64,000 bases of DNA from Euglena gracilis (Eukaryota), in NCBI GenBank assembly GCA_039621445.1, contig CP154954.1:48711847-48775846 (forward strand). The letters run 5' to 3'. The translations under genes and the position numbers were made by a program. Positions within the stretch are counted from its first letter, which is position 1. Each line of letters starts with the position of its first letter. Below are positions 613 to 63,000 of the stretch, piece by piece. A model generated the notes under the pieces. That model was not told the DNA's origin, searched no databases, and saw only the letters and a list, made by a program, of their open reading frames with translations.

Positions 613-3600
613 CGGCATGCAGATCCGGCTGAAGACCGAGGACTTGACGCAGCTACACACCGAAGAACGCGCAGCGGCGGTGGAGGTGGAGATGCGCGTC
701 ATCCCCAGCATTGAAGGTGCTGGCCCATGAGTTCCACTCCGCACTCCCTCTGTCTGGTTTGAGCAATCTTTGTCCAACAATCCAGTTCAAGGCAAATTCT
801 CCAATTTGACATAGTTTCGATCAAAATTTGTTTTTTCTGATTTTTGTGAACACTCATCCAAAATTTTGGGGAAAAATTACCGCCCCTGCCAAGAGCTGGC
901 TCCCCTCTTCTGTGGAGTCAGGGTTTTTTTTTAGTCTTGGACCCTGGGGGGGGGGGCAGGGGGGGTGGGTCTGGCTGAGCCCCCTCCCCCCCGGGGGGGG
1001 GGTCCCCCCAGGGGGTGGGATATACTTTTCGGCGCCAAAGGCACCGAAATTTTTTGAAAGAGGTGCCTTTTTTTAGCATTTTTGTTATTTTTTTGGCCTT
1101 TTCAGGGAAAAGTGGGTTGGGTCCCCCAACCCCCCCCCCCGGCCAGGGGGTGGGCGGGTGGGGGGGGGACCCCCCCTCCCCCCAGTCTTAAAAAAAACCC
1201 CTGGGTGGAGTGATCATGGTTGACAAAAGCAAACAGGGCATTTAGCCATTGTGCATGTATTATGTGCCCATCACATCCCTCTGTTACGGCTTACACCGAA
1301 AGGTGGCTGCCGTTTTCCCTGGGGAAAAAGACAGACTACGTGGCGATGCACACGCGGTCCCTTCTCTCTCAGTGGGCAATCCCCGGCCCGTTGCCTGGCC
1401 ATTCGCGGAGGGGGCTGGGGCCAGTGCCCCCCAGCCAGCCCCGCCCCCGCCGCCCCCGCCCCCGCCTGCCGCCCCGGCGCTGTTCAGCGGGCCACCCCCG
1501 GACACCCCAGACCAGCAGCAGTGCCACCTTCAGGTGCCAGAGCTCTCCAAATTCCCTTTGCACTGTTCAGGGAATCAACGTAATAGAAATGATCACTTGC
1601 GTTGGGAGGGGTTGGTGAGTCGCCCAGCCAGTTGGTCTGACGGGTGGGGGTTTCTGGTGATAAAACCACTCATATGTGTACAACTCATATTGCATGTGGA
1701 TGTCGTTGTTCAACAACAAAACAAACAAAACTCTTTAATTGGCTTACAAAGCCTTCCAAAACAAGCTCAAATGGTGCCAAAGCCTTCAAAAAATCACTCC
1801 AAATGAAGAGAAAAATAGGTAAAGCTTGTGGATGGCGTCGGGGCAGAGGTTTTTTTGTTTTTGGGGGTCGGGATCAAGCACCTATAGTCAAAATGGCCGA
1901 AAATGGCCGAAAATGGCCGAAAATGGCCGAAAATGGCCGAAAATGAAATTTTGGGCTCTATAGGTGGGGGTCCCGAAAATGGCCGAAAATGGCCGAAAAT
2001 GGCCGAAAATGGCCGAAAATGAGAAAAAAAACATTGCAAAAATTTTCGAGTTTTTTTTGCCCAACAGCTTTGCCCAACACCTGAGGGGCGATTTCCAGTG
2101 CGACTGATTCTTGTCTCTGTGCAGCCTCTGTTCTCCTGCCATTATGCCTGGCACTGCAACACATGCTGCTCAAAGAACCACCTCCGAAAGGGTTATTTGG
2201 GCCAAAGCTGAATGTTTTGATGACATTTCAGAAAATTTTGGTGACAAGGGCGATGCTGGCATTTTTTTTGTATTTTTTGAAGAATAAAACCTATTTTTGG
2301 GATAATTTCTCCACAAATCTCCAGTATTACGCCCATTTTGGCCATTTTTGTATCAATTTTTGCTGATTTTGGGGTATTTTGCACTGATTTGGCAAGTATT
2401 GTGCTAATTTGGGTCAATATGAGCTCATTTTATGACATTTCTGGCCATTTTGCGCCATTTCTCCCAACCTAGCAAAATGACCACAAAAACCCCAAAAATG
2501 ACCACAAAAAGCCCAGAATTGTCCACAAAAAGCCCCCAAAAGCACCCAAAATGACTTAAAATGGCTTGAAATAACCAAAAATTGCCCAAAAAAGCCAACA
2601 ATGTCCACAAAAAATATGAAAAATAACCCAAATCACCAAAATGAGCCAATGGATGAAGACATTAGGCAAGACACAAATATTGGACGAGATGAATTGAATG
2701 GAGATACTGGACAAGATGCAATGGATTACCACCTGTCGGAGCCCGCATCGTTGAGGACCCAGAGGAGGAGGTCCACACCCAGGAGCAGCACGGCACACTG
2801 CATCGTTCCCATTTACGTCCGCTACGTTCCCGGTCCCCTTCTCGGTCCCCCTCACTCCCGGGCCCACATTCCCTGCCCCTGGACTGGCAACCACTCCCCA
2901 CAGCTCTCCGGGACCCCACCGTCCCTCGCTCTCTGGGTACCCCCACCCCAAGAAGACCAAGGACCCGAAGCCCGAAACCCGAAGCTATGAAACCCATTAG
3001 ATCCTCCTGCACTGGGAGTGCGCAGCGCACCCTCTCTGTTTCTCCCTACAATCCTCCAATCACCCCCTCGACGCTCTACACATCATACAGGAGCAGCTCG
3101 ACGGCTTGCGGCTGACCATCTATGCAGCTGCCGATCCCGAGCAAGGATATCAACGCCATTCTTGGGACCCATCCGAGGGTCCAAACCGCCGGCGGCGGAG
3201 TCGTTCATCGCGGCAGAGGCAGCCAAAGCAGTCCGCCTCCCACCTACATACACCCCACCAGCTCATCGCCTTCGCCCCCAACCTACGCGGAGGCGGTGCA
3301 GTTGCCGCCACCATCGTCATCATCGTAGCAGCTGGTGCAGCCCAAGCAACGCCAACAACGCCAACAAGGAGGCCCATGCCGCGCGGAGCAACAGGTGTCC
3401 CGAACCCCGGCTCATTCGGGCTGGTATCCCGAGCCCCGCAGGCCCGGCCGGTTGCGGGTGGGCGAGCATCCCGTGCGGAGCCTCTCCCCAAACCCGGCCA
3501 GGTGCCCTCCCTCTCCTCCCTTCCTCCCTGCCCTCCTATTCCCCCGGTCCTCTCCAACAGAAAAAATGGATGCAGATACTGAACAAGATGCAGATGCTGG

Positions 3601-5728
3601 ACAAGATGTATATGCTGCAGAAATTGGGCAATCGGGTGAGCGCATTTGATGTCAATATTTCAACATTATGTGCTGATCACATGTTTGCTTGCTTTTGCTC
3701 TGAGCTCAAGCCGAGCGCACTTTCTTCCAACTTTGCCACATCCAGACGGATGATCATCTCATCATGATAGATGAAATTTAACATCAAGGCTTCTTTGAAG
3801 TGATCGATTTGTGCCATTTAGATTTTTCACGATATTGCAACCAATTTTTTTTGACCTCTTTAATCCCTGAGCACCCATTCCAAACGGACCTCTTTGGATG
3901 TGTTGGCTTGATTTGTTGCTCACAACTACTTTTACGTTGCATGAATGATCAAATGCATTTTTGGTATGAAAGGATTTTAAGGTAATTTTACCCCCCACCT
4001 ATGGAAAAAATGGCCGAAAATGGCCGAAAATGGCCGAAAATGGCCGAAAATGGCAAAAATCGGGGTGTCAACTATAGGTGCTTGGTCGGGATCCACCTAC
4101 CCAGGGGGGGGCTTGGGGGACCACTTTTGGGGTCAATTTCGGGGTCCAAAAGTTCTTCGGTGTACGGTGCCCACTTTGCCCAACCCCCGACCCGGGGTTG
4201 CAGGGTATTCAGACTGATCTGCATGGTGTGCGCAGTTACAACTCTGCACCCAAAATCTGAATTTCGAAATTGAAATCTTCCCAAATTTTCTTTTTCTGAA
4301 GTATTATTTTCCTGTCATTTTTACGTTCCACGATCTTTGTTCAGGCTTTAAAATGCTTTGAAGATGAACGCCTGTGCAAGCTTTTCCATTGATTTGTTTG
4401 TTTGCCCCTGATCTATCAGTCGAATATTTGACAACAATGGTAATAAATTTTGCTTTTGCACAAGGGGTGTTGCAAAAAATTCTTGTTTTCATTTGTGGGA
4501 TTTCATTTTTCAGACCAGCCTGATGAAAAACATGAAAGTCACATTGGATCCAGGCTTTTGCTTAAGGACCCCCGGGTACTGGCTAGCCAATCGGCTAGAC
4601 ACTGGAAAAAATGGACTAGCTAGACCCCCCTCCCCCGGGGGGGGGGGGGGTCCGGGGGTCCCCCCAACTGGAATTTTTTTCCTCCAGTTTTTTTTCCTTT
4701 TTTTCCTCCAGCGCTGCGCGCCGAGGTGGAAATGAGGTTTTTAATAGGTTTTTGGCTGATTTTGTTCCAAAAATTCCCAAAAAAAGTTTCTGGTGCTTCG
4801 CGCCGGGCACTGGAAAAAATTTTCCACTAGCTAGCCCTGCCAGCAGACCCCCCCGGGGGGGGTCTGCTAGAAATCCCACTAGCCAAATTTGGACTAGCTG
4901 CAGTCCAGCCCCCCCCCCCCCCGGGGCACTGCAATCCCTTAAGCAAAAGCCTGATTGGATCGTTGTGAGTTTGGTGAGTAAATTGCTCGAAAATGTGCTC
5001 ATGTTTGTGGCAATGGTGACCAATCATCAGTAGTTGTTTGCCATAATTACCTGATTGAGAGCGTCCTATTGCGTGTCTTTTTTGTCCCTTTTCACACATT
5101 CCATCCTGGAAGGGAAGTTAAACCTGTTGGCTCAGGGCTGGCTGACGCGGCTTTACCAGTCAAATCGGCGTGACATTTTGGTTCCATCGTATGCCCTTTG
5201 TGACTCAGGATCAGATCCTGCAGCTGCAGCAGTTTGCTGTTTCGTTCAAGTGCCATCGCCGTCAATCCCCCCAATGTCGAACAATTTATATTTATATGTT
5301 TATATCTCCACAGAAAATATTCCACACTAGGTGGGCTAACATTTGGCAAGACAGTGCGCGCCAAGTTCAGCATCCTGACATCTGAGACCCAAGCCCACTA
5401 CAATCGCTCAGTCATTTAACCCCCCCTGAATAGAAACCCCTGGGGGCAACTATTCGGAACGTTGGTTGAAAACCGAGGGGGGGCTTCTATTCGGGGGGGG
5501 GGGGGGGCACTATTCGGAAAAGTGGTCGAAAACCAGTGGGTTCGAGAATTATCGAAGAAATTTCTTCGTGGGTCTACATGCCCAACCTTCCAAACCATGT
5601 CAAATCTGCTGCAAATGTTACTCTTGTGAATGCATGATCATTAAACGTAAAATCATCCAACCCTCATTTAGAGGTATTGCAAAAACTGGAGCCCTGCACT
5701 AGACATTTACCCCCACCCCGCACACCCC

Positions 5729-5759
<31 letters not shown>

Positions 5760-7782: not shown

Positions 7783-9949
7783 TCCTGCATAGGTCTGTCT
7801 TTATAAATTCCTAAAACAGCAAAAGAATGCCCAACCATAATGGGTTTCAGAAGGTCAGGAAAAACATTTTTCTGTTTCGCTTGATTGGTATTCTGTTAGG
7901 TGAGGAAATTGTTTTTCAGTCATCCCACTTTTTCCTTGAAAATTTAATCAAAGAATTTTGAAGTTGAATTTTGGTACATCTCAAACCAATTTGTGTCTTT
8001 GGTATGGAGTGTCAGAGAACTTTTTGGCACCATTTTCACGAAATATTCATCATCCTCATCAGCATTTTCCTGTTTTGAATTATTTCCACGATAACCCTTC
8101 AGGGTCGATACATTTTCCACCTATTAAAGTTGGCTGAAATGCATTTTGTCAAGCTCCATCTTGTCTGGCAGCGCATTTTTGAAGTGCCGCTGAAAAGAAT
8201 GGGCTGATGGCTTTTTTTTTTGATTCACAAAAGGCGATTTGCAAACTCTGAAAAAAAAAGATGTTTACAACCGCCAAAAATCAAGCCCTCACTGGGGCCT
8301 AAAACTGACCCCCTCCCCCGGGGGGGGTGCCTGCTTTGCCAGAAGCGAAGTTAGTGGCGGCAATAAACAGGCAAGAAGCCTCAGTGCAGCCTAAGGGGGC
8401 TTTGGGCAGGCACCACATTGCACAAGGTGCCCCCCTGGGCTTGACAGAAACGGATCTTTGGCTTTCACATATGCAAAAATGGCCAGAAATTGCAAAAATG
8501 GGTCGGATTTGGGCTGGCCAGGGCAAATTTTGGGTCAAAAAACCCGTGTTTTTTTACACCCCTGGCAGTTTTTTTGGGCTTTTTTGGAGTTTCAATGTTT
8601 TGATCCCTGGTTCGACTCCCAGTCTGGCCCAGTTCCAGCCCGGGGGACCCCGATGGGGGGGTTAGCCAGCAGCCTTATTCCAGCCAGCCCAAATTTTCCA
8701 GCTTCTGACCTGGACCCCCCCCCTCCCCTCATTAAGCAATGCCCTGGTCTCAGGCCCAACCCCCATACATTCTGAGAGCATAATTGGGAAAACGGTTGCG
8801 TCATCTTTTGCTTCCTTGTGGTTTTGTGTGGCGTTTGTAATTTTGGGAACTTTGAAAATTTTCAAAAAAAAACTTGTTGGAAAAGCTCTAAGGTTGAACC
8901 TGCCTCTGGGGTAGGGGTTTTCTTAAGCTGTAGGGGGCTTTGCTTCCTGGGGGGGTCCAGTCAGCCATCACTTTTTTTTTTTCAAGCCAGCACCTCCCAG
9001 CCAGGCTGTGGACCCCCCCCCAGGGGTCCGCTGAAACAAAGTTTGGGCCAGCCCAGCAAAGCCAGCCTGGCAGAAAATTTTTGAAGAAAGGGGTCAAAAA
9101 ATGGCCAAAAATGGCATTTTTTGGGTGCTTTTTGGGGTTTCACCTGAATTTGGCTGAAAAATGCCAACCCAACTGTATTTCGGCTTTTTCGGGTGTTTTT
9201 TTGGGTACCCACCGGGTCCAGCTCCCAGCCGGCCGGACCCACCCCCCACTCACCACTCACCTGACAACTGCGCCAGAAGCGAAGTTAGAGCCAGCCATGT
9301 ACCGAAACGAACCATTAGTGCAACTAAGGGAGCCCAGCCAGCACCTTTTTCCAGCCGGCCCGCGGACCCCCCCCCCCCGGGATCCTTAAGAAAACCCCTG
9401 CTTGGGGTAAGCCAGAGTCACAAAAGCAGGTTGGTTGTAATTACTTCGTGATTTATCGTTCCATGGAATTTCTCGTGAGAACTTTTTGTTGAGAAACTGA
9501 AACAACTGAGAACCGGGTTCACTTTCGTTTTCATCATTCGGAAGAATGGGAAAATAACACGATGCTCGCCACTTGGAAAACGGGATTGGGACACGATTTC
9601 ATTGTCATGAATACCGTCATGTTTACAAACACGTTTTCCAAGGCATGGTGTGGCCTGAACACGTTTTTGATTAATGTTGAAACCGTGTCTGGGAACTCCA
9701 GCTTCACGCGCCAACTGCGCCAACTGGCGTCCGGGACGGCTCTGAGTTTTCACGAAATGTAATTTCACGAACAATGAACAGTGATACATACTTTCATTGC
9801 CATATTATGTAATTGCATTGAGCGAAAAGTGATATATTTTTGTGAAAGCAAAAAACACGGCAGTAAAAACCAGAAGCCTGCTCACTGTTCGTCGCGAAGC
9901 AGCCGGGAGGCCCCCCCATGGATGCCAAACTTCTCTGAAAGGGGGAGAA

Positions 9950-10970: not shown

Positions 10971-11229
10971 GGGGAGGGGGGTGAATGTTTCAGTTGCTGG
11001 GTTGACAAAAAAAAACTGTTTGAAAGAGTTTTTCTCAGATCTCAGGGCAAGGCAAAACGCAAAGGAGGCAAAGGTACCAATAACTTCTGCAGCACATCAC
11101 GAGGCAACATGGCAGGTGAACATTGGAATTTGGAATTTGCGAAAAGGGTCGGAACATGCGATCGGCGATTTTCTGAGCGCTGTGCAGTGTGGCTGAAGCT
11201 CAAGCGAAAGGGCTTGGGGAGAGCTTCGA

Positions 11230-15177: not shown

Positions 15178-15596
15178 CATAGCTGGCACTTCGTTTAAAA
15201 CGAAGTCAAAAAAAACACGTTTTTAAAAAAAAACATGTTTTTTTTAAAAAAAACAAAAAAAACGCCATTGAGGGTCCAGGGCAAAAAAAATTTTTGCCTT
15301 TGATTTTAGGTTTTTTTGCCCATCCTCGGTCAGAGAAAGACACCAAATTTGGGATGTTTCAAGTTAGTTTGGAATGGTTTCAAGCCAAAATGGCAGAAAA
15401 ATGCCCTATTTTGACCATTCTTGTTGAAGACAACCAAAAGTATTGGTTTTGAGCTAAGATTGGTTCACCCTTGCGATCAAAGGCAAAATTTGGACCATCA
15501 TTTTCCCCTTTGTTTTTTTTGCCGTTTTTTTTGCCCGTTTTTTTAATAAAAAAACAAAAAAAACGTTTTTTTAAATAAAAAAAAACGCCAGCTATG
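15178..15596. mobile_element. hAT-type MITE with CAT...ATG ends
   Basis: TIR CATAGCTGGC...GCCAGCTATG; perfect 8-bp TSD ACGGGTTG (15170-15177, 15597-15604). Confidence 0.9.
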
Positions 15597-16789: not shown

Positions 16790-16965
16790 TATGTGTGATT
16801 GTACCAGGTTTTTTTTTGGGTGGCAGCTCTTTCTTCCCTTGTGCTGTGCCTGGCAATCTTGTGGTCCTCCTGGCGTCTCATGTGGATAATGGTTCTCTCT
16901 GGCTTAGAATTGGTTGTTCCGCACATCCACACACAATTCATTCATTGGGGGTGTACCCCCCGCCG

Positions 16966-16996
<31 letters not shown>

Positions 16997-19623: not shown

Positions 19624-20312
19624 CAGGGTTGACGTTTTTTTTGTTTTTTTTTAAAAAAAACACAAAAAAACATGTTTTTTTTGAAAAGCAAAAATTGACC
19701 TTTTTCCTTGCGAAATCGCCATTTTTTGAGAAAATTTTTCCGGGGTGGTTCGGGTCACGGGGGGGGGGGGGTTCAGGGGGGAACACCACATTTTCGGTGG
19801 TTAAATTAGGAATCATTGAAAACGAATTTTTTGGGGAAAATCCCTTGTGGCGCCAAATTAGGAATCCCCAACTTAAAATTAGTATTTTGACACCAAATTA
19901 GGCATCACCAGTCCAAATTTTGCAAAATTTATGCCTCAAAATTATGAATCTACCTGAATATTTTGTCAGATTAGGCATCACCGGCCAAGTTATTTTTCAG
20001 AAAAAAATTGGCCGAAAAGGGTCTTAGGTCGGGTCGGGGGGGGGGTCACGGGGGGAATACTCCCTCTAAAGTTTTTTTTATGTGTGAAAGTATTTCCAAA
20101 TCTGTGTTTTCTGGTGCAAAAAATCATGCTTTCAACCCAAAAAAAAAGAAAAAAATGAATGCCGCAGAGATAAAAAATGAACTTTTTTCCAAAAAAAAAT
20201 TGCAAAAAATTTTTCCCCCAAACCCTCCATTACGTTTTTTTAAAAAAAACATATTTTTTTTAAAGAAAAAACATGTTTTTTTTGTTTCAAAAAAAACAAG
20301 CCGTCAACCTTG
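19624..20312. mobile_element. hAT-type MITE
   Basis: TIR CAGGGTTGACG...CGTCAACCTTG; perfect 8-bp TSD CAGGCAAT (19616-19623, 20313-20320). Confidence 0.9.
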
Positions 20313-21489: not shown

Positions 21490-24400
21490 ATGGGCTGCGT
21501 CTATTGTGTGGAGCAGTCAGAGGTTGCTATTGTTGAATCATGGGGAAAGTACGAAGCCACACATCTCCCTGGCATTCATTGTTTAGTTCCATGCAGAGAT
21601 CAAGTTGCCGGCAAATTGACTTTGAGGACACGAGAACTCCACATCAAAGTTGAAACTAAAACAGCTGACAATGTGTTTGTGACAGTGCTCATGCTCCTTT
21701 CTTCATCCCTTGTAGTTATTTTCCCATTTTATATCAGAGCTTGAAAGAACTTTTTGAGGATTTTGCCTTTCACTTTTTTTCCATGCAAAAATTTACCGAC
21801 ACTAACAGATTCTGCAGGGGCGCTGGGACATGCGAGCGAAGCGAGCGGCCCGGTGCCCCTGCTGTTAGTGTCGTTCTAAAAACCTATTTTGTGTGCCCGC
21901 ACGCCTGTCTTGAATTTCATTCTACCGAACCGCCTGGATGGAAATATTGCCAAATAAGTGGTTTCCTGAATGGAGATCCACCGACCTAAACAGATTCCGA
22001 TGTCTTGGAAATCGACCAACCTTTGTTTCATTTTTCTGAATGACATTTTGTTCCATTTTGGGCATTTTTGGCAACATCTACATTTCCCCAAATTCTCGAC
22101 CAATGAAACTGAAATTCCTGATTGTTAGATGATCAGGATCGTATCCGCCTGTTTCTGTTTCCACCAAAGAGTAGTAGCCTAGTAGGTCAATCTTTGTTCT
22201 TAATGGGATCCCCACCCCATTTTGCACAGCCAAAGGAAAAACCAGTGAAACCAGATTAGGGGAACCCCCTTTTCCATTTGTTTTATCGAAGCTTTGCATC
22301 GGTCACAAAGCTCAGTGGCCAGAACACAGGGTCAGTGACCTGAGGTTGTGGGTTCGAGCCCCACTGTGTGCATTTCCATTTTTGCACTAATGTGAAATGA
22401 TGTGCCTTGGGTTCAAAAACTGCATTCACAGTGGGGTTCACAATGGGCATTTTTTGAAGAAAAAAAACAAAACAATGTGCTCTTTTTAAAAAAAACATCA
22501 AAAAACAAAAGGGGAATTTCATTGAAAAAAAAACTCGTCCACACTACGAAACAGAGTCCTCGGGATCCTTTTTTCACCACAGCAGGTGCTTTTTGCATCT
22601 CAGCAACAAGAAACTCCAGGGATGAAGGGGCTTTCAGACTGGCCTCCCACACGAGGTTTTGCCGCTTGGCCACGAAGAACAATCTATAAAAAAAATGAAG
22701 AATCAAAATTTCGCTTTTCAACTTCACCTATTTCAACATTTACTGATTTTAGCAGGGGCACCGTTACAATGAAACGGGTTTAAAGACAGGAGCCCGTTTC
22801 TTTGAAACGATTTTCAGAGGGGCGCCTTTACTATAAAACGGTTTTCTGAGGGGCGCCGTTTTCTTGACAAAAACCACAAAAAAAAAACGGGAAAAAAGCG
22901 TCCGTACGGGTTACTAATCGTCGAACGTTGTTCAAGACAGGCGTGCGGGCCCTGCAAAATAGGTTTCAGAACAATCGACTGCACTAACAATTTTAGCAGG
23001 GGCGCCGGAGGCGCCAGGCCGCCCGGCGCCCCTGCTAAAACCGCTAGTGGCAGTTGATTTTTGTATAAAAACTTTTTTTCTGGGCTCGATGTCTGTCTTG
23101 AATTTCTGCTGATTTAAATGGAATTCAGGCTAAAATTGTTTAGGTCATTCCATTCAGGCGCCCGCTTAGGTCAGTCAATTTCCAAGCCGTAGAAATCTGT
23201 TGCTGGTCAGATTCGGAATTTTTAGTGAAATTTTGGACATTTTTGGAGTTTTACTTTTCTTCGAAATTTTGGGCACCATGGAGTTCAGGGAGCATTTTTA
23301 GCCTAGTCAGAGTGAATTTTTTCGGTCAGAGGGCAAAGATGACAGTTTTATTTTCTTGTCAATTCAAAGTTTTTTGTCCATTCTGACTTGCATGGCTGTC
23401 ATCGCCCACATAGCTGGATGGAGATGTGTGTTCGAACTGCACCATAGTTGGCAATTTGTTTTTTTTTGGATGCTGTTTTTTTTTCAAAATTCAACAATGT
23501 TTTTTAAAAAACAACAAAAAATACCCATGAGGTTTTGCACAGAAAAAATTTTGAAAGCATATTTTCACTCATTTTGGCAATTTTGGGTCATTTCTGCCAA
23601 AAAATCCTTCCACAAAAAAGTGAAAAAAGTCATAACACAACATTGTTTTGCATTTTTGGATGGTTTTGACCATTTTTTTGGCAGTGTTTGAATTTAGTGT
23701 CAGCGGCCCAAAAAAGGCTGAATGCCAAGATTTTCGAGGTGTTCGCTGTGAAGTGTGTAGTGTTTGGTGGCACTGGAAGTGTGTGGATCTCCGACATCCA
23801 TCCAGATTTGGGTGGATGTGCGAGGGCTGTCGCAACGCTATGCAGTAGTTCGGTTTCAGTTGTGCAGTCCTGGTCGTGATTGTGTCTGGGTTATTTTTGT
23901 CACGTTTCTGTACTTACCACGTTTTCAGCTCTTTTTGAGCTCTGGGACACTAGAACCAAACCTGCGTGTGCAATTCTGCATTCACATATTCGTCATCTGT
24001 TCCATCAGTTACCAGGCAGGTACAAGTACAAGTAAACGGGCGCCCCTCTGAAAACCGTTTTAAAGAAACGGGCGCCTGCCTGTCTTGAAAACCGTTTTAT
24101 TGAAACGGATGCCTGTCTTGAAAACCGTTTCATTGTAACGGCGCCCCTGCTAAGTTCCGTTAATGTCATTAAATTTTTAGGACAGGCGTCGGGCCCTGGA
24201 AATAGATTTTAATGGAGGCTGGGTGGTCAGGGGGGAGATGAATTTGAGGGGGGGTCTGGCCGGGGCGGCGCACGCGGCGCTTTTGCTACGGGCCAAATTT
24301 AGGACATTTTTTAAAAAAAATTGAAAAATAAAAAATTTCGGTAGTTTTTCAGACCGGGACAGCAGTTGTTTAATGAAATAATGTCGAAAAAATTCAGTCC

Positions 24401-36178: not shown

Positions 36179-36490
<312 letters not shown>

Positions 36491-36718: not shown

Positions 36719-44935
<8,217 letters not shown>

Positions 44936-46235
44936 ACCCTCCCTCCGAACGTTAAAATCGCATGATTTTCCTTTTGAGCGGAGACACTGCAATCCCCCTC
45001 CTCCCGCGGATTTCTTTCGACGGCCTTGTTCTAACCTGGCCGGCCCCATATCGCATAAAGGAACATGGCCAGTGATCAAAATTGATCTTGGACCATTTAT
45101 CTTTGTGACGACTTGCGATATTCTTTGCGCAAAACCAAACCGCCCCAAATGTGAACACTCACCCCATCATATTCCCTGATTTTGACTTTGCCTTTTTTTG
45201 GAGCCAAATGGGCTTTCCATTGCCTATTTTGAGATTATTCTTTTCACTGGTTTTTGATTTCACATCTGAAGCATATCCCAAATTCGATCCAAGTCATTGA
45301 TGTCATTTATGGTGAAATATTAAGAGCGATGATATCTTTTGTTTGGATGAAATTTCTAACTCTACAACAACTGCAATGCCACCCGGTGCACCCGGGCAAC
45401 AGTAGTGCCATCTGGGGGGGGGTCTTGGGGGTTCCGCCCAAATGTGGATCCAGGGTGTGGGCGGCTGAAATTGGTTCTGAAGTGCCACCACTTTAAAATG
45501 TGCCTTTTTGTTTCATTGTTTAATGTGTTCATGTCGGATCATCCGTTGACCTAACCCCTGTGTGATCCTCGGTGAATGGGTGGGAGGGCCTTCGACAGAG
45601 GGTGGGTGGGTGGGTTTGGTGGGGTGGTGGGGCATGGGTCAAACCAACCCGACAAACCGGAGGATGGGCTGTCCGAAAAAATTTAAGGGGATTTGGCCGA
45701 GTTTTGGGAGGCTTTTGGCTGGGTGAGTGGATGCACCCCCTGGGGGGTGCGGTTGTTGGTGGGTGGGTGGGGTTTCGGGGAAAAAAAACGGTTGGGTGGA
45801 TTTGGGCCCGGGGCACCCCTCCCATGGCCACCGAGTGAATCTACGTGCCGGATGTGTAACGCACCCCTCCCCAGAGGTTGTAACCACAGCAGCACAACGA
45901 AGATTTTAGATGGCGCTCCGGCTTTAAAAATTGCAAACAGGAAACTCGCATGAAACAGGTTTTTTGGAGGTTGTGGAAATTTTGTGGCGTTTGATTCGGA
46001 TTTATTACGGTATATGGAGTTTGGCTTACGGTTTCAGTTTGCAAGTTCAAAAACCAATTGATTATTATGTGCTCATTTCTACGTGTCAACAATTGGCAAC
46101 ATATACAGAATTCTGTGCACATTTTGTGTACATTGTAATGTTCATGGTTTGAGTGCCAAATCCCCCCTCCTTTGAAATTTCTGTCCCATGCTGCCAGTTC
46201 CCCCTCTCACCATAGCCCTCCTCCACCCGCAACAG

Positions 46236-48922
46236 ATGGATCTGGTTCGCTCACCCTGGAACTGGAGCATCTGGAATGCGCTGGCCGGCGTGTCAGGCAC
46301 TGCCACCCCTTCCGAGTCAGGGGTGGTCGTGTGTGATTTTGTCTTCCGCCTCAAGCACACCACACACTGGGAAAAAGGTTGGTTTGCTTGGACCATGCCA
46401 TTGCTTAACACCTGTCCCACCCAACCCAACGGGGGGTGACTGACTGGTTTTTTCAGAGTGACTGACTGGGTTTTTTTTTTGTCCCAGAGCCCCCCCTCTG
46501 GGGGGGGGTGGGGTCGGCCCAAAAATGAAAAAGTGGCTGGTCTGGCGCCGAAGGCGCCGGAATTTTTTTGGATTTTTGAGACTTTTTGGCAAATTTTCAT
46601 AGCCTTCTGAAGAGTGGCCGATCCCCCCCCGGGGGGGGGGGTAAAGTGACTGACTGGTTTTTTTCGGAGAAAGTGGCTGACCGGTTTTTTCAGAGTGGAA
46701 AGTGACCTCCCCTCCCCCCGGGGGTCGCTAAGCAATGGTATGGCTTGGACCACAACTTTGCATTTTTGACTTTTTTTCATTTTCCCTTTGCACCTGCCTT
46801 GCCAAGCGCTTGGCGCTGATTTACAAGAATCAGCGGGGAATCGGGGGCCCATTATTACGACAGCTTTTGCCAATTCGCACAAAAGGTTGCCAAAATCGCG
46901 ACCTTTCTGGACCGAAAGCCCCTCTGACTCAAGGTCACACACGCCAAACCCCGACACCACCCTCTGAGGTTTCCGGCACCACTGCCACTGGCGCAGACCG
47001 TTCACGGCGGGCGCCACCGGGCCCTCCCAGTACTTCACCCTCAAGGTGCGGAACGGCACCAAGCTGGACGCGCCGCTCTTCGTGCTGGGCAAGGGTCAGG
47101 ACCCTGGCCACCGGCCAGCCCACCCCCCGGCAGCGGAGGTCTCTCCCACATGGGGCCCACCCCCGGCAGCGGAGGTCTCTCCCACATGGGGCCCACCCCC
47201 GGCAGCGGAGGTCTCTCCCACATGGGGCCCACCCCCCGGCAGCGGAGCTCTCTCCCACATAGGATGGAGGTGCGGCGATGCGAAGCCGGATGGCAGGGTA
47301 TGGAAGGTTCAAAGGGGATTTCGTTTTCCGGCAACAACACCGGACAGGAACTAAAGGGTTGGTCAAAAATGATTGGAAAGACCGAAGGCAGTGAAAAATT
47401 GGTTCCAACCAAATATCACCAGACACATTTGTGGTTTTTGTGCTTTTTTCACTTTGCATTTTCCGCTTTATAAATTTTCTCTTTGTTGCAATCCCCCCCA
47501 AAACGCTTCGGATTCTGCTGGAGAAAAAATCTGATTTGAAGTTTTCCTTATTCTTTAGATTCTCTTTAGTGGCGAGGTTTACATTTCAGCACGTCCAGCA
47601 CGTCCCAAAAATGTAAAACCGCATTTTTGCGGCTTTTGGTGAACCTGAATAATCCAGACAATCCAAGAGCTTTTTTTTTTGCAGGTGTTGTGCCGCATTT
47701 TGGAGGGTCCCTCCTACGTCCCCATCCCTTGGTATCTGTTGGTACATTTTGCAAATGAATTATGCAGGTGCTTTTTGGAGAAAGGGATGTCGTTGGGTGT
47801 GGCCTGGATCGTTTGCATAAAGGAGAGGCGCCAAGCAGTGTTACGCCGCTTGGAACCCTGGCTGCTTGGGTTGTGTTTGAGACTGATTGTCCCGTGATAT
47901 GCGTCGATCCCCGGCTGGGGGAGGCGCTGCCCCCACAAGGAAGGGCAGTACGCCATGGTGGAGGCGTACCCAGGGTTCGATATAAGGAGGGTGTCACAGC
48001 TGTTGGTGGGGGTCCTGAGGGAGTCTGGACCTCCCCACCCGCCAGGGGTCTGGATGGACCCGGGGGGAGGTGCCTGGGACCCGTCAAACGGTCAACTTTT
48101 CCTTCCGGCGCTTTCCGCCGAAAACTTCGGCAATTTGAAAGAGTTCTGCCCAAAAGCAAACCAAAATGGCATTCTGGGTTGAATTTGGGAGGAGCGTGCC
48201 CTCGTTGACCGGAGGGGAGGGAGAGCCTGACTCCCCCCTCCCCCCTTGCCACCCATACGCCGAACCCTGGCGCACCTCCACTTCAACGATGGCGGCGTGG
48301 CGTCCTTCGTGCCCGCCACCACCGCCGGGCCCTCGCCCACCCCCCTGCCCCTCCGATGGCCCCCCCCCCCCGCCCGACCTGATAGGCGGCGCCTGAGCCA
48401 TCGCTGGTCCCTTCCGTCAACCCTCCCCCCCCGGTCGTCTTGGGGCAGCGGTTGTCGCGGCGCGGCAGCACACGGCGCAGGGGGATGGCCGCGGGGGCGT
48501 ACGCCCGGAAGCTGTCCGACTTCCCTGCCGGGGCCCACCCCCGCAACGCTGCCCTGCGCTGTTCTCCCTCGGGTTGCAGGAGGGCTGGGGCGACCTGTGG
48601 AACTTCCCCCAGATGGGCGGATTAGTTGCAGGGGGAGCTGCATTGCACCCAGCGTTGCTGCCGAGAAATTTCCACATTGAGAGGCGGAGATTTACCTCCC
48701 CCCCCCCCCCGGCCTTGCCACACGGCTTGCCCATGGCCCCTCCCCCCTCAGCCGCGTTTCCCCTGTCCTTTGTCGTGGCGGCTGTATCAACGAGGGACTG
48801 GGGGCCCCATCGCAGCGACCCGAAGGACCCCTCTCTGCGGGTGCTCACCATCCCGAAGACCATCGGCGGCCGCCTGTACTTTTCCTTCGCCGAGCCCGTG
48901 GTGCTGTCGGTGGTGGCCCAGG
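46236..48922 (+). CDS. N-terminal exons of the GH64 beta-1,3-glucanase region, copy 1 (cut off from the catalytic exons by the duplication junction)
   Basis: Exons 46236-46296, 46997-47094 (PFTAGATGPSQYFTLKVRNGT..LFVLGK), 47570-~47611, ~47685-47730, ~47901-47967, 48274-~48330 (YLHFNDGG), two or three small exons, ~48792-48922 (LTIPKTIGGRLYFSFAEPV, matching the GH64 'P..SGRIYFS' motif). Confidence 0.7.
47120..47260. repeat. 36-bp tandem repeat, about 4 units (single unit in copy 2 at ~58370-58400)
   Basis: Unit CCCCGGCAGCGGAGGTCTCTCCCACATGGGGCCCAC; intronic. Confidence 0.9.
47971..48269. mobile_element. Decayed hAT MITE that constitutes a nonconventional intron
   Basis: Starts CAGGGTTCGATATAAGGAGGG and ends CGAACCCTG; interior is collinear with the MITE at 57290-57693; flanks GCGTACC / GCGCACC. 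Also present in copy 2 (~59112-59396). Confidence 0.8.
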
Positions 48923-49899
48923 CTGCCCTTGGCCCGCGGGCCCAATTGCAACGTCATCGTACTGCCGCTGCCCCAACACGCTTGATGACACCCTCAGACT
49001 TATTTCAGGGCAGGTCGTACCCCCCCCCAGTGCTATGGGCACTGTCGACCCCCCCCCCTACCCTTGTGGGGTGGGTGTTTTGGGCAGCGATGGTACCCCC
49101 CGGAAAATGCCTGATGAATAGCCTTTTCAAGGGAAACTTGGGGCGGAACACCCAAGGATTTTTTTCTTTCTTGCTACGAGCAGGGCCCCCGATGGCAGAT
49201 ACTGCCCCATTGCCCCGCCATCCCAAGCAAGTGGTACCCTGGGTCGCCGAACCGAAGTCCGCTATGGGCTTTCTCCGGTGCGATACAATGTCCTCTCCGC
49301 CTTTTACCCTTCCTCTCATCCTAAGGAGCAGGGACACCGAGCCAAATAATTTTAACACCGGAGTACGACCGAGCTGTCCATTGGTTTCCTGCCCCCTCCC
49401 CGACTCCGGTCGCAAGCTGCAGCCTTCCACCGAGGGAAAGGACCTCCAGGGGCGTGCCGTTTCCAAGACCCTCGCCGAGCCCAAAGGCTCCGGTGTGGGC
49501 GTGTGCCATTTCTGCATTCCTGTATTTCGCTGAGAACATTTTCAGGAGAACGGAACCGAACCATTTTTCGTTTTAGCTCTACAGGCTCTGAAGGGGGTGG
49601 ATGGGTACGTCCCGGACCAAGCTCCTCCCCCCCCTACCACAGGTGTTTCCTGGTACAAAGCTCCAGAAAACTTTTTTGACAGAAATGGTTCAAATACTGG
49701 GGAATGTGTTTTTTTTGTGTGCCCCCCCCCCTCGTGGGTGGGCAGGCAAGCCGGGTGTGGAATGTAAAAAGCACACACGACAGATTGACATGCCGAGGGA
49801 CTGAGTATAACCTCTTGCTGGCGTTTTTTCACACCTCTTGTCCCAGGGCCGGGAGAGTGTTTGATCTAAATCCAATCTTTGCCCCCCCCCTCCTCCCAG

Positions 49900-55773
<5,874 letters not shown>

Positions 55774-57084
55774 ACCCTCCCTCCGAACGTTAAAATCGCA
55801 TGATTTTGCTTTTGAGCGGAGACACTGCAATCCCCCTCCTCCCGCGGATTTCTTTCGACGGCCTTATTCTAACCTGGCCGGGCCCATATCGCATAAAGGA
55901 ACATGGCCAGTGACCAAAATTGATCTTGGACCATTTATCCTTGTGACAACTTGCGATATTCTTTACCCAAAACCAACCGCCCCAAATGTGAACACTCACC
56001 CCATCATATGCCCTGACTTTGACTTTGCCTTTTTTTTGGAGCCAAATGGGCTTTCCATTGCCTATTTTGAGATTATTCTTTTCATTGGTATTTGATTCCA
56101 CATCTGAAGCATATCCCAAAATCGATCCAAGTCATTGATGTCATTTATGGTGAAATATTAAGAGCGATGATATCTTTTGTTTGGATGAAATTTCTAACTC
56201 TACAAACAACTGCAATGCCACCCGGTGCACCCGGGCAACAGTAGTGCCATCTGGGGGGGGTCTTGGGGTTCCGCCCAAATGTGGATCCAGAGTGTGGGCG
56301 GCTGAAATCGGTTCTGAAGTGCCACCACCTTAAAATGTGCCCTTGTTTCATTGTTTAATGTGTTCATGTTGGATCATCTGTTGACCTAACCCCTGTGTGA
56401 TCCTCGGTGGATGGGTGGGTGGGCCTTCGACAGAGGGTGGGTGGGTTTGGTGGTGGGGCATGGGTCAGCCCAACCGACAAACCGGAGGATGGGCTATCCG
56501 AAAAAATTTTTAAGGGGATTTGGCCGAGTTTTGGGAGGCTTTTGGCTGGGTGAGTGGATGCACCCCCCTCGGGGGGAGGGGTTGTTGGTGGGTGGGTGGG
56601 GTTTTGGGGAAAAAAACGGTTGGGTGGATTTGGGCCCGGGGCGCCCCTCCCATGGCCACCGAGTGAATCTATGTGCAGGATGTGTAAAAGTTGGTATTTA
56701 TTCCCTTCCCCAGAGGTGGTAACCACAGCAGCACAACGAAGATTTTAGATGGCGCTCCGGCTTTTAAAATTGCAAACAGGAAACTCGCATGAAACAGAGG
56801 TTTTTTGGAGGTTGTGACGAAATTTTGCGGCGTTTTATTCGCATTTATTACGGTGTATGGAGTTTGGCTCACGGTTTCAGTTTGCAAGTTCAAAAACCAA
56901 TTGATTATTATGTGCTCATTTCTACGTGTCAACAAGTGGCAACATATACAGAATTCTGTGCACATTTTGTTGCACATTACGTTGTAATGTTCATGGTTTG
57001 AGCGCCAAATCCCCCCTCATTTGAAATTGCTGTCCCATGCTGCCAGTTCCCCCTCTCACCATAGCCCTCCTCCACCCGCAACAG

Positions 57085-60000
57085 ATGGATCTGGTTCGCT
57101 CACCCTGGAACTGGAGCATCTGGAATGCGCTGGCAGGCGTGTCAGGCACTGCCACCCCTTCCGAGTCAGGGGTGGTCGTGTGTGATTTTGTCTTCCGCCC
57201 CAAACACACCACACACTGGAAAAAAGGTTGGTTGGCTTGGACCATACCATTGCTTAACACCTGTCCCACCCAACCCAACGGGGGGTGACCAGGGTTTGAT
57301 ATAAGGAGGGCGTACATGGTTTAGGTGGGGGGGGGCCCCCCCCCCCCCCCCCCCCCCCTCCTGGCCCGCAGGGGGGTCCGGACCACCCCCCCCCCACCTG
57401 CCAGGGGGGTCCGGACCGACCCTCGGGGGGGTTCCCGGGACCCCCCCCCAAAAAAAGGGTCAATTTTTTCCTCCGGCGCTTCGCACCGAAAATTTTTTGC
57501 ATTTTGGCACATTTTTGCCCAAAAAGTGCCCAAAATGGCACTTTTGGTCATTTTGGGGGGTCAAAAATTTTCGGTCACCCAGACCGCGCAACTGTTTAGG
57601 TGGGGGGGGGGTGTCCCCCCCCCCCCCCCCCTCCTGGCCCGCAGGGGGGGTCCGGACCACCCCCCCCCCCACCTGTCCTTATATCGAACCCTGGGGGTGA
57701 CTGCTGGTTTTTTCAGAGTGACTGACTGGTTTTTTTTGTCCCACAGCCCCCCCCCCCCCCGGGGTGGTGTCGGCCCGAAAATGAAAAGTGGCTGGTCTGG
57801 CGCCGAAGGCGCCGGAAATTTTTTGGATTTTTGAGACTTTTCGGCAAATTTTCATAGCCTTCTGAAGAGGGCCGATCCCCCCCCCCGGGGACTGACTGGT
57901 TTTTTTTGGAAAAAGTGACTGACCGGTTTTTTTCAGAGTGGAAAGTGACCCCCCTCCCCCCGGGGGTCGTTTAAGCAATGGAATGGCTTGGACCACAACT
58001 TTGTATTTTTGATTTTTTTTCATTTTTCATTTTCCCTTTACACCTGCCTTGCCAAGCGCTTGGCGCTGATTTACAAGAATCAGCGGGGAATTGGGGGCCT
58101 ATTATTACGACAGCTTTTGCCAACTCGCGCAACAGGTTGCCAAAATCGCGACCTTTCTGGACCGAAAGCCCCTCTGCCTCAAGGTCACACACGCCAAACC
58201 CCGACACCACACTCTGCGGTTTCCGGCACCACTGCCACTGGCGCAGACCGTTCACGGCGGGCGCCACCGGGCCCTCCCAGTACTTCACCCTCAAGGTGCG
58301 GAACGGCACCAAGCTGGACGCGCCGCTCTTCGTGCTGGGCAAGGGTCAAGACCCTGGCCACCAGCCAGCCCACCCCCGGCAGCGGAGGTCTCTCCCACAT
58401 AGGATGGAGGTGTGGCGATGCGAATCCGTACGGCAGGGTATGGAAGGTTCAAAGGGGATTTCATTTTCCGGCAACAACAACGGACAGGAACTAAAATGTT
58501 GGTCAAAAATGATTGGAAAGACGGAGGGTAGTGAAAAATTGGTTCCAACCAAATATCACCGAACACATTTGTGGTTTTTGTGCTTTTTTCACTTTGCATT
58601 TTCAGCTTTTTCAATTTTCTCTTTGTTGCAATCCCCCCCAAAACGCTTCGCATTCTGCTGGGGGAAAAAATCTGATTTGAAGTTTTCCTTATTCTTTAGA
58701 TTCTCTTTAGTGGCGAGGTTTACATTTCAGCACGTCCAGCACGTCCCAAAAATGCAAAACCGCATTTTTGCGGCTTTTGGTGAACCTGAATAATCCAGAC
58801 AGTCCAAGAACTTTTTTTTTGCACGTATTGTGCCGCATTTTGGAGGGTCCCTCCTACGTCCCCATCCCTTCGTATCTGTTGGCACATTTTGCAATTGAAT
58901 TATGCACGTGCTTTTTGGAGAAAGGAATGTCGTTGGGTGTGGCCTGGATCGTTTGCGTAAAGGAGAGGCGCCAAGCAGTGTTACGCCGCTTGGAACCCTG
59001 GCTGCTTGGGTTGTGTTTGAGACTGATTGTCCCGTGATATGCGTCGATCCCCGGCTGGGGGAGGCGCTGCCCCCACAAGGAAGGGCAGTACGCTATGGTG
59101 GAGGCGTACCCAGGGTTCGATATAAGAAGGGTGTCACAGCTGTTGGTGGGGGTCCTGAGGGAGTCTGGACCTCCCCACCTGCCAGGGGTCTGGATGGACC
59201 TGGGGGGAGGTGCCTGGGACCAGTCAAAAGGTCAACTTTTCCTTCCGCCGCTTTGCGCCGAAAACTTCGGCAATTTGAAAGATTTCTGCCCAAATGGCAT
59301 TCTGGGTTGAATTTGGGAGGGGTGTGCCCTCGTTGACCGGAGGGGAGGGAGAGTCTGACTCCCCCTCCCCCCTTGCCACCCGTACGCCGAACCCTGGCAC
59401 ACCTCCACTTCAACGATGGCGGCGTGGCGTCCTTCGTGCCCGCCACCACCGCCGGGCCCTCGCCCACCCCCCTGCCCCTCCGATGGCCTCCCCCGCCCGA
59501 CCTGATAGGCGGCGCCTGAGCCATCGCTGGTCCCTTCCGTCAACCCTCCCCCCCCCTGGTCGTCTTGGGGCAGCGGTTTTCGCGGCGCAGCAACACACGG
59601 CGCAGGGGGATGGCCGCGGGGGCGTACGCCCGGAAGCTGTCCGACTTCCCTGCCGGGGCCCACCCCAGTAACGCTGTCCTGCGCTGTTCTCCCTCGGGTT
59701 GCAGGAGGGCTGGGGCGATCTGTGGAACTTCCCCCAGATGGGCGGATTAGTTGCAGGGGGAGCTGCATTGTCCCAGCGTTGCTGCCGAGAAATTTCCACA
59801 CTGAGAGGCGGAGATTTACCTCCCCCCCCCCCCGGCCTTGCCACACGGCTTGCCCATGGCCCCTCCCCCCTCAGCCGCATTTCCCCTGTCCTTTGCCGTG
59901 GCAGCTGTGTCAATGAGGGACTGGGGGCCCCATCGCAGCGACCCGAAGGACCCCTCTCTGCGGGTGCTCACCATCCCGAAGACCATCGGCGGCCGCCTGT

Positions 60001-63000
60001 ACTTTTCCTTCGCCGAGCCCGTGGTGCTGTCGGTGGTGGCCCAGGCTGCCCTTTGCCCGCGGGCCCAATTGCAACGTCATCGTACTGCCGCTGCCCCAAC
60101 ACACGTGATGACACCCTCAGACTTATTTCAAGGCAGGTCGTACCCCCCCCCCAGTGCTATGGGCACTGTCGACCCCCCCCCTACCCTTGTGGGGTGGGTG
60201 TTTTGGGCAGCGATGGTACCCCCGGAAAATGCCTGATGAAAAGCCTTTTTCAAGGGAAACTTGGGGCGGAACACCCAAGGATTTTTTTCTTTCTTGCTAC
60301 GAGCAGGGCCCCATGGCAGATACTGCCCCACCGCCCCGCCACCCCAAGCAAGCGGTACCCTGGGTCGCCGAACCGAAGTCCGCTATGGGCTTTCTCCGGT
60401 ACGATACGATGTCCTCTCCACCCTTTACCCTTCCTCTCGTCCTAAGGAGCAGGGACACCGAGCCAAATAATTTTAACACCGGAGTACGACCGAGCTGTCA
60501 ATTGGTTTCCTGCCCCCTCCCCGACTCCGGTCGCAAAGCTGCAGCCTTCTACCGAGGGAAAGGACCCCCAGGGGCGTGCCGTTTCCAAGACCCTCGCCGA
60601 GCCCAAAGGCTCCGGTGTGGGACGTGTGCCATTTCTGCATTTCTGTATTTCGCTGAGAACATTTTCAGGAGAACGGAACCGAACCATTTTTCTTTTTAGC
60701 TCTACAGGCTCTGAAGGGGGTGGATGGGTACGTCCCAGACCAAGCTCCTCCCCCCCCCCTACCCCAGGTGCTTCCTGGCACAAAGCTCCAGAAAACTTTT
60801 TTGACAGAAATGGTTCAAATACTGGGGAATGTGTTTTTTTGTGCCCCCCCCCCCCGTGGGTAGGCAGGCAAGCCGGGTGTGGAATGGCCCAGACCGGGGC
60901 CAGCGGGACCCGTTCAAGTTGGACGACCCCAGCTACTACGTCCTGTATGACAAGGTGGAGTTCACCTTCAACGATCTGGGGGTGTGGGGCAGAGCGCTGC
61001 CTTTTTTGCCTGCAGCAGTTCAAGTGCGATCCCTCACAAGGTTCTGGAAGTTCCATTTTGGGGTCTTTGTTTTGAATTCTTCTTCAGCAATCGGACACAA
61101 AAAAAAACACGTCATTTTGGGAAATGCGGAAATTGCAGGATTTGCACAAAACTTGCAAAAGAAATTATGCTGGGAGTGTGCAAATATCTGTTGGAGGGGA
61201 CTGACAAATAAATTCATCCCATTCACCCATATGGGATTCATTTTCATTTTGAAACAGTGGAGTATACTTTTGAACTGTCATTCACACTTTTTTCACAAAC
61301 CAGAAAACATAATTTCGTAATTTCGGAGTAAAAGGCCAAAAAATTGCTTCCTGGAAAAGGCGGAAATGACAAAAATTTGATAAAGCCTTTGGTCTCAGGT
61401 AGAATCCAGAATGCAAATATTTCTAAGTCGAAAGGTTATAAACCAAGATCATTTCTGAGCAGAACTCGAAAAAACCTAAGAAGTCATAAAACTCATAAAT
61501 GCAAAAATTCGCAAATTTTGCAAGAAACCAGCAGAGAGGAAGAATTTGTGCTTCCTTGCGAATCATTCAAAGGACGGCTGGAACTCACCGCCACTTCATT
61601 TTGCAGATGCCACCAAAGAATGCAGACCAAGGGAGGAAAGGAAAAAAAAACTGCAGAAAAATTGCAAAAAAATGGCGGAAATGGTGAAATTGCCAGGAAA
61701 TTGCGGACATCAATTATCCCCCCTACCGTGGTGCGGCGGGGGGTCCAGGGCGATCTCCACTGATGAAGTCTGATGCCCGAAGATATCACAAAATGGGTTT
61801 TTAATTGGGGGGAAAAGAATTTGCCGTCCCGGCACATTCATTTGAAGAAGGGGCGGGGAATTCAACAGGTTGGCAATGGGAAACAATTGCTTCCCAGCAT
61901 CCTTGGAGGAAAACAGCACTGAAACCACATCCTATGTGTGCCTTGGAATGGAAACCTTGAATCATCTTTTCCTAATGTATTCTGGCAGCAATCTTCCTGT
62001 GTGTGACGCACGCACTCAAGGAGCCAAATCTTATATCTGGAAAAGCAGTGTGTGTGTGTGTGTGTGTGCAGAGTGAGGCATTTCCGAAAACATACCGCCA
62101 CAGAAAAATTATAAGTTACTATTGTGCCTAAAAAACAACAAAAGCAAAATTAACAAGCCTCTCCAAAATCAGGTTCCCAAAAAACCATCCCTGGATTGAC
62201 TGAACAAGGACCCCCCCCAAAAAAAAACACTCCCCCTCCTCGCATTTGGAGGTGAAGCGCTGGACGCTGAAAAAATATTTCAAATCTTCCAAAAACCATA
62301 ATTTCAAACAGAAAAAAATTATTTGGGGATCATCGAGGCCAGTCAGTATAAACGCCGAGTTTCGCAGGTCAAATATGAAGCAAAAGTGCCAAATTTTTTT
62401 GGGTCGTTGGAAATTCAAAATTTCCCCCGCACTTTTCCCCAAGGCCTCCAATCTCGATTCCACCCCCCCCCCCCGTGTCCCAGCGAGCGTCCGGGCCCCG
62501 CCCTGCGCGGGATCGACACCACTGCGGTGGATTTCTTCTGCATGCCGGTCGCCCTCCACTTCGAGGGCCGGCCCGGCACCGCCGTCGGCCTCGCCCAGCC
62601 CCGCGCCGCCGTGCTGCGCACCGTGGCGGACGCCTTCGCCGGCCCCTGGGGCCGCCTGCGCCTCACGCACCCCGCCCGTCCCGGTGAGGGAGCCGCCGCC
62701 ATACACGCGTGCGCGTGCGGTGCGAGACTTGCCGCCACGTTCCCCCCTTCCCTTGGGGCCCCCCGCGTGGGACGCCGGCAACCCGGACGGCAAAGAAGCG
62801 GTCCTCCGCATCCTGGCGCCCAACAAGGCCATTGCGCAGGGGCACTCCCAGGCCGACGGTTCTTCTTTCCGCTCGGGAACCGAAGCGCCCGAGAAATTTT
62901 TTGTGCATCCTCTTTCAGCAGAGTCAGTGTCGCCGGTGCAGAATATGCTGTACCCAATTTGGACACAGTTCCGCTTGATGGGTGGTGGATGTGGACTATT

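Follow-up and report, generated by a model that had tools for sequence, protein, structure and literature searches.

Where the nonconventional introns of euglenids come from, and how they are removed, is a question dating from the 1990s, and it is raised anew by a stretch of 64,000 nucleotides of Euglena gracilis DNA (contig CP154954.1; hereafter the window, to which all positions refer), in which free inverted-repeat elements flanked by 8-nt direct repeats lie among genes interrupted by introns of this kind. The window is treated here as euglenid-type nuclear DNA: its GC content ranges from 42 to 62%, CA/GT microsatellites are abundant, its genes have very small exons and introns mostly without GT-AG, and one gene has a euglenid-labelled member among its best protein relatives. 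Our answer, to which we assign a probability of about 0.55, is that an 8-bp-duplicating, hAT-like class of transposons gave rise to many nonconventional introns by inserting into exons. It is carried by the free elements and their target duplications, by one such element found within an exon of an SPFH/Band-7 gene, and by the equivalence between the spacers of 3 and 5 nt inside these introns and a target duplication of 8 bp.

According to the mechanism proposed, short non-autonomous DNA transposons with ends of the form CA(G/A/T)...(C/T/A)TG duplicate 8 bp on insertion, and the paired triplets of the introns, most often CAN/NTG, stand at the foot of the end helix, separated by 3 nt from the 5' border and by 5 nt from the 3' border. 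A machinery cutting 3 and 5 nt outside that helix would then remove the transcribed element together with exactly one duplicate; when the duplicate is written t1..t8, both cuts would fall between t5 and t6, and the join would restore t1..t8. Because the spacers are 3 and 5 nt, exact restoration would be given only by an 8-bp duplication, and nonconventional splicing of an exonic insertion would leave the mRNA unchanged in either orientation, since the element ends are inverted repeats. In older introns, the intronic halves of the duplication would no longer be present. This arithmetic, put forward in an initial annotation made from the letters of the window, is sound, the spacers being 3 and 5 nt in the available part of the published work (PMC12501133). 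The geometric equivalence of 3 + 5 with 8 is correct and non-trivial, and it is backed by one case in the window and by one published case that its authors read differently.

Several components of this proposal are already published, namely an origin from miniature transposable elements with inverted repeats (MITEs), border repeats resembling target-site duplications, the N3/N5 code, and the idea that splicing mitigates transposon insertions. In the available parts of the papers concerned, (i) a MITE-like origin was proposed in 2014, no transposable elements having then been identified in euglenids (Milanowski et al. 2014, PMC3935182), (ii) a nonconventional intron newly gained in one strain, its direct repeats of eight nucleotides ascribed to break repair, was described in gapC of E. 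agilis (Milanowski et al. 2016, PMC4770533), (iii) a 2024 review calls the intron ends terminal inverted repeats and the border repeats similar to target-site duplications, notes the pyrimidine-purine border, and in the legend of its Fig. 3D pairs positions +4..+6 with -8..-6 (PMC11282704), and (iv) the splicing code was established by knock-ins as 5'-N3-C-D-G...C-H'-G-N5-6|R (Nomura et al. 2025, PMC12501133). In this last work, lengthening or shortening the 5' spacer by one base abolished function, a 3' spacer of 5 nt was preferred and one of 6 nt tolerated, single changes within CAG or CTG abolished splicing, and conversion of CTG to CTA left the intron retained; the code is present in 61.2% of nonconventional introns, short direct repeats stand at the borders of 84.4% of E. 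agilis introns, and the machinery is suggested to mitigate transposon insertions. Nonconventional introns account for about 72% of all E. agilis introns. For want of any description of free elements that match, the MITE-like origin has remained a suggestion. The available parts of these four papers do not mention hAT, and those of Milanowski et al. 2014 and 2016 and Nomura et al. 2025 name no transposon superfamily and do not equate 3 + 5 with a target duplication. In the literature searched we found no publication tying euglenid introns to hAT or to an 8-bp duplication, and the supplements of PMC4770533 and PMC12501133 may hold repeat-length data; what appears to be new is the families of free elements, the demonstration that they duplicate 8 bp, and the link 3 + 5 = 8.

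Thirteen element copies are found in the window, corresponding to 11 independent insertions, with two copies stemming from a tandem duplication (53424-53645 and 57243-57985; Table 1). All 11 independent elements are flanked by 8-nt repeats (seven perfect, four with 7/8 matches) and have ends CA..TG or CA..TA, and in every one of the 13 copies the two ends agree at 9-14 of their first 14 nt. The seven element starts listed in the initial annotation all coincide with 5' ends of elements with terminal inverted repeats, bear the end triplets claimed, and have 8-nt flanking repeats, identical at 8/8 positions for the elements starting at 1875, 15178, 19624 and 57290 and at 7/8 for those at 919, 30614 and 42988. 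Four further independent elements were added to these, at 4551-4953, 28073-28192, 33398-34039 and 46394-46742. On the plus strand, position 6 of the duplication, one of eight positions inspected, is a purine in 10 of the 11 elements; in the model the exon resumes at this position, and a purine is favoured there by the published code.

That these flanking repeats are target duplications was examined at the level of the whole window. Of 3322 CA..TG pairs whose inverted ends agreed at 11/14 positions or more, identity of the flanks at 8/8 positions occurred in seven, and in one of the same pairs when the flanks were shifted by 12 nt as a control. A second scan, seeded by exact direct repeats and with no filter on end letters, returned seven elements in the 8-nt class, all of which start with CA and end with TG, while direct repeats of 7 and 9-12 nt, on inspection of the list, corresponded to tandem arrays or to the same elements in a shifted register. 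Furthermore, the tandem duplication preserves a filled and an empty site, since unit A contains a single GGGGTGAC and unit B reads GGGGTGAC-element 57290-57693-GGGGTGAC. The absence of this element from unit A places its insertion after the tandem duplication, and the pair of sites proves that the elements transpose and duplicate 8 bp. The observation of elements with their duplications is confirmed as real and well above chance.

In the SPFH gene (28065-28203), the stretch encoding the conserved FYELS.PDQQL is split by an element of 120 bp, which has a perfect end helix of 7 bp and lies between perfect 8-bp duplicates. Reading through the insert at 28070-28197 meets a stop codon immediately, and removal of 128 nt, comprising the element and one duplicate, restores the conserved run and leaves the later exons in frame to the stop. 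The insert is an exonic element in the configuration predicted and, judging from this restored reading frame, it would be spliced out. CAG also follows in the exon, which lengthens the repeat to 11 nt and makes 12 border positions equivalent, one of which, 28076-28203, reads GC..AG. In a fold of 28060-28207 the terminal helix is present, the energy being no better than that of shuffled sequences (z 0.32). The claim made at the outset, that any exonic insertion of such an element would be a scarless intron, agrees with the register of this insert but is too broad, as single changes within the CAG or CTG triplets abolish splicing in the knock-ins described (PMC12501133, available part).

Ten introns of the window were tabulated for the same geometry, sliding borders being set in the register fitting the rule, so that the counts lean towards it. 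Triplets at +4..+6 and -8..-6 are fully complementary in six, pair at two of three positions in three and do not pair in one; the first exon base is a purine after nine of the ten, and nine of ten lack GT/GC..AG borders and have a helix joining their ends, the exception being 29924-30268, with its helix (ATGCTTG/CAAGCAT) about 9-12 nt inside the borders. The window introns share with described euglenid nonconventional introns the lack of GT-AG, the end-joining helix, a triplet pair (in some CAG/CTG) at +4..+6 and -8..-6, direct repeats at the borders, spacers of 3 and 5-6 nt, and a purine as first exon base. The published code appears in full in 30290-31320, 60987-62510 and 42343-42850 (the latter with N6), and the spacing is kept with other letters in the CAT/ATG (two), CAC/GTG, CAA/CTG, GGG/CCC, CAG/CTC and CAG/CTA introns, of which those with CAT/ATG, CAC/GTG and GGG/CCC fall outside the C-D-G/C-H'-G code. 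The five introns of the initial annotation all fit N3-CAN..NTG-N5 as written, with complementary or nearly complementary triplets in that register; four of them are backed by protein continuity, but 60987-62510 only by an open frame across the join.

A number of results weigh against this origin of the introns. The initial proposal called for similarity between the 8-nt flanks of introns, and in the nine introns other than 28070-28197 the flanks match at 24 of 72 positions (binomial p 0.07 against an expectation of 0.25), which is not a decayed 8-nt footprint; of these 24 matches, 16 lie at -2, -1 and +1, a clustering that a shared preference for a pyrimidine-purine border would yield and an evenly decayed footprint would not. 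None of 82 shifted offsets reaches 24 matches (mean 13.3, maximum 21; the offsets overlap). When intron ends were compared with the free element families of the window, the likeness stopped after the first few letters; one intron needs a 6-nt spacer (3 + 6 = 9), and another is off this geometry entirely. No second copy of the exonic element is present in the window. Its 3' triplet is CTA, a substitution with which the intron of the published knock-in assay was no longer spliced, so that 28070-28197 may leave as the GC..AG intron 28076-28203, or this copy of the gene may be dead. To the same side belong the failure to see a transposase in the window and the absence of the window's own SPFH protein from the database clusters examined, both taken up below. 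Matches between introns of the window were limited to the segmental duplicate, 64 kb being a weak test in this respect.

Table 1. Elements, introns, gene and duplication units of the window, in order of position within each group.
Feature	Position	Strand	Description
Element, 285 bp	919-1203		CAG/CTG ends; target duplication TGTGGAGT/GGTGGAGT (7/8)
Element, 2210 bp	1875-4084		CAA/TTG ends, 14/14 inverted; target duplication GTCGGGAT (8/8)
Element, 403 bp	4551-4953		CAG/CTG ends, 14/14 inverted; target duplication ATTGGATC (8/8)
Element, 419 bp	15178-15596		CAT/ATG ends; target duplication ACGGGTTG (8/8)
Element, 689 bp	19624-20312		CAG/TTG ends; target duplication CAGGCAAT (8/8)
Element, 120 bp	28073-28192		ends CAGGCTGA/TCAGCCTA; duplication GTCCCATC (8/8); exonic in SPFH gene
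Element, 375 bp	30614-30988		CAG/CTG ends; target duplication CCACCACC/CCCCCACC (7/8); nested in intron 30290-31320
Element, 642 bp	33398-34039		CAG/CTG ends; target duplication 7/8
Element, 222 bp	42988-43209		CAG/CTG ends; duplication 7/8; duplicated copy 53424-53645
Element, 349 bp	46394-46742		CAT/ATG ends; duplication GCTTGGAC (8/8); holds empty site for 57290 element
Unit-B copy of 46394 element	57243-57985		carries nested 57290-57693 insertion
Element, 404 bp	57290-57693		CAG/CTG ends; target duplication GGGGTGAC (8/8)
SPFH/Band-7 gene	21490-33357	+	exon 1 from 21490; stop at 33357
SPFH intron candidate, 128 nt	28070-28197	+	ATC-CAG..CTA-GTCCC|A; element 28073-28192 plus one GTCCCATC copy
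SPFH nonconventional intron	28236-29776	+	GCC-CAC..GTG-ACCTG|G; 9-bp end helix with 1 mismatch; nested element fragments
SPFH intron, 345 nt	29924-30268	+	borders slide over 4 positions; no GT-AG, no N3/N5 triplet pairing
SPFH intron (initial annotation)	30290-31320	+	GGA-CAGGCTTC..GAAGCCTG-GGGCT|A; holds element 30614-30988
SPFH intron (initial annotation)	31359-31496	+	CTT-CAT..ATG-GCAAC|G
SPFH intron	31575-31954	+	same geometry, GGG/CCC instead of CAG/CTG
SPFH intron, 96 nt	32028-32123	+	CGA-CAG..CTC-TCCCC|C
SPFH last intron	32244-33294	+	readable as GT..AG
J-domain intron (initial annotation)	36827-37061	+	TGG-CAT..ATG-CTACG|G; separates HP from D of the HPD motif
Enoyl-reductase-like gene, conventional GT..AG intron	41609-41984	+	contains CA microsatellite
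Enoyl-reductase-like gene intron (initial annotation)	42090-42290	+	AGG-CAA..CTG-CCCCC|A; unit-B copy 52477-52672
Intron candidate	42343-42850	+	AGA-CAGGGACC..GGTCGCTG-ACCCCC|G; in frame only with 6-nt 3' spacer
Intron candidate (initial annotation)	60987-62510	+	GGG-CAG..CTG-CGCGG|G; support is open frame across join only
Tandem duplication unit A	39462-49764		enoyl-reductase/ADH-like gene on + strand
Tandem duplication unit B	49765-60886		two element insertions absent from unit A

Such results leave room for other explanations, which bear on different parts of the argument. As regards the exonic element, it is unlikely, if not markedly so, that the insert at 28070-28197 inactivated a redundant SPFH paralogue in recent times and is no intron at all. 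This would agree with the youth of the insertion denoted by its perfect duplication, with the CTA triplet blocked in the published assay, with the existence of close paralogous or orthologous proteins (P0001 and P0002, 98% and 94% identical over one exon), with the divergence of exon 2 upstream of KVLD, and with the fact that the window's own SPFH protein is in neither of the clusters examined, being absent from the nine members considered. Nevertheless, the later SPFH exons are all open and in frame to the stop, the longest exon is 93-98% identical to expressed relatives, and a GC..AG reading of the insert is also available. As regards the repeats themselves, their production when staggered double-strand breaks were repaired in the course of intron gain, as the eight-nucleotide repeats of gapC were read by Milanowski et al. 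2016 (PMC4770533, available part), is very unlikely for the window, because here the 8-nt repeats flank inverted-repeat families, also in non-genic DNA, and have an empty-site counterpart, which is the signature of transposition.

A further explanation reverses the order of events: splicing would be the older partner, acting as a filter and not as a product of the elements, and those that fit would merely be tolerated in transcribed DNA or would mimic the code. The geometric match would then be genuine but uninformative on the origin of the system or of most introns. We hold this to be unlikely. It draws on the finding of a recognisable element in only one of the ten introns examined, on the GGG/CCC and CAC/GTG introns, which share the geometry without transposon-like ends, and on the purine at position 6 of the duplications, for which a target preference, selection of spliceable insertions or else chance could account. 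However, coding exons hold few of the elements whose duplications are intact, most being situated elsewhere, where no filter is expected, and yet all 11 independent elements combine CA..TG or CA..TA ends with 8 bp. Our preferred reading remains that of exonic insertions of the 8-bp-duplicating class as the source of many nonconventional introns; for the introns other than 28070-28197 a common origin with the exonic element is what we infer, and the general claim of origin is plausible. Overall, the interpretation given in the initial annotation is partly supported.

The elements are called hAT-like, and not hAT, because no transposase was seen in the window and the motifs of that superfamily are present only in part. 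The end motif of hAT elements is YARNG, and their target preference is nTnnnnAn. The former is found at the 5' end of six of the 11 independent elements, with CAGGG-type ends, and the ends CAGGC, CAAGC, CATAG and CATGC do not fit it, three families starting with CAT or CAA; the latter is not evident in this small sample, with T at position 2 in 3/11 and A at position 7 in 4/11 target duplications. Pfam searches with the 145 open reading frames (ORFs) of the window of at least 125 aa returned solely ADH_N, in two ORFs, and those with the five ORFs inside the 2.2-kb element 1875-4084 gave no match, so that neither set contained a hAT domain or any other transposase family. The label hAT, as originally applied, rests on the duplication length and the end letters; the elements are hAT-like by duplication length and CAGGG ends, and their superfamily is itself inferred. 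It is possible, though we lean against it, that they belong to another superfamily with 8-bp duplications, P-like or undescribed, in which case the hAT label would be wrong though the geometry may hold. In addition to the missing domain and the partial motifs, this would be in line with Merlin being the only E. gracilis DNA transposons with 8-bp duplications described in the literature examined (PMC8101967, available part). Nonetheless, the ends of all Merlin families described there start with GG, as opposed to the CA starts found here, and Merlin was rejected as the element class since none of the 11 elements starts with GG; hAT elements, as given in the available part of PMC3942097, duplicate 8 bp and have inverted ends only 10-25 bp long, in agreement with the window elements.

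Transposons behaving as introns have precedents. In maize, the spliceosome removes Ds from transcripts, usually without precision. A maize Ds acting as an intron was reportedly described by Giroux et al. in 1994 (cited in PMC3935182). Introners of Micromonas, dinoflagellates and others are, in the available part of PMC11282704, short inverted-repeat DNA transposons that become introns in exons, and their target duplication supplies part of their precise removal, as would be the case here. They differ in depending on the spliceosome, with GT/GC..AG borders and duplications of 3-5 nt (PMC11282704, same part), whereas removal of the window elements would be performed by the structure-measuring nonconventional system, precision deriving from spacers that sum to 8. 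The introner trait of many near-identical intron copies across genes is not seen in the window, whose 64 kb make this a weak test.

The exon-intron structure of the SPFH/Band-7 gene was derived from its relatives. Translation of an exon retrieved SPFH/Band-7 proteins 94-98% identical over the exon (P0001 and P0002 at the extremes), and nine exons of 46, 38, 147, 21, 38, 78, 73, 120 and 63 nt were mapped in 28024-33357, the spliced frame being open through to the stop at 33357. Two micro-exons, of 21 nt (30269-30289) and 38 nt (31321-31358), stand between nonconventional introns. The first intron, with a tentative junction of exons 1 and 2, spans ~6.3 kb (21690-28023), and within it no recognisable coding was seen for the part of the relatives' sequence from DNVFV.V to KVLD; a micro-exon for the missing TVTIMF-like stretch was sought and not found. 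A metagenome scan for close SPFH relatives gave identities of at most 63%, and these loci were not used. Element 33398-34039 begins 41 nt past the SPFH stop codon and probably lies within the 3' untranslated region; if the model is true, it would also be spliced from the SPFH mRNA.

Additional traces of the element families were also observed. Intron 28236-29776 contains fragments of the family of 4551-4953, and a diverged relative of element 42988-43209 lies at about 38248-38471. The 2.2-kb element 1875-4084 carries, inside both ends (1890-2021 and 4007-4054), arrays of the 10-bp AAAATGGCCG in the same orientation.

Regarding the other genes, the halves around intron 36827-37061 match positions 1-30 and 38-58 of the DnaJ profile, and a relative of the enoyl-reductase-like gene (P0138) is continuous over the 42090-42290 join. 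A homologue search with ORF 41232-42089 gave His/Thr low-complexity matches and nothing usable, and the exon before 60987 had no match in either a homologue search or Pfam. Pfam searches on 10 long ORFs returned only a sub-threshold ZIP match, and those on 10 unit-A ORFs none. The flanks of 42343-42850, GACCCAGA and ACCCCCGA, match at 5/8 positions. The J-domain exons and their intron are flanked on both sides by microsatellites (CA-rich at 36180-36490, GT-rich at 37639-37883) that form a 245-nt inverted repeat, 85% complementary.

The two units of the tandem duplication measure ~10.3-11.1 kb each and are 92-95% identical across most blocks; locally, in one exon-intron-exon stretch (42040-42340 versus 52427-52722), identity rises to 99%, suggesting gene conversion or constraint. 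Only unit B contains a ~410-bp element at about 54339-54749, which ends in (A)ACCCCCCCCAAATATAAA and has duplicated TA at its target. Small elements of this genome thereby include a second class, similar to Tc1/mariner, and the 8-bp class is not the sole element type here.

A bolder version of the proposal holds that the euglenid machinery is calibrated to one transposon class, that the distances of 3 and 5 nt are the fossil of an 8-bp staggered cut, and that the machinery arose or was recruited to erase insertions from RNA; this is speculation that we regard as improbable. Under it, every transcribed insertion would be neutralised in either orientation, elements would spread through genes in such numbers that most introns came to be of this type, and the excised RNA circle would have its two inverted ends abutted across a reconstituted 8-nt copy of the target. 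Independently of that version, if the elements are the source of nonconventional introns, the 3/5 spacing would be simply explained, the eight-nucleotide repeat at a newly gained intron would be reinterpreted as a target duplication, and the hypothesis would be testable with existing genome, RNA-seq and knock-in assay resources. If true, this would be an instance of intron removal made precise by the geometry of transposition and not by the sequence of splice sites.

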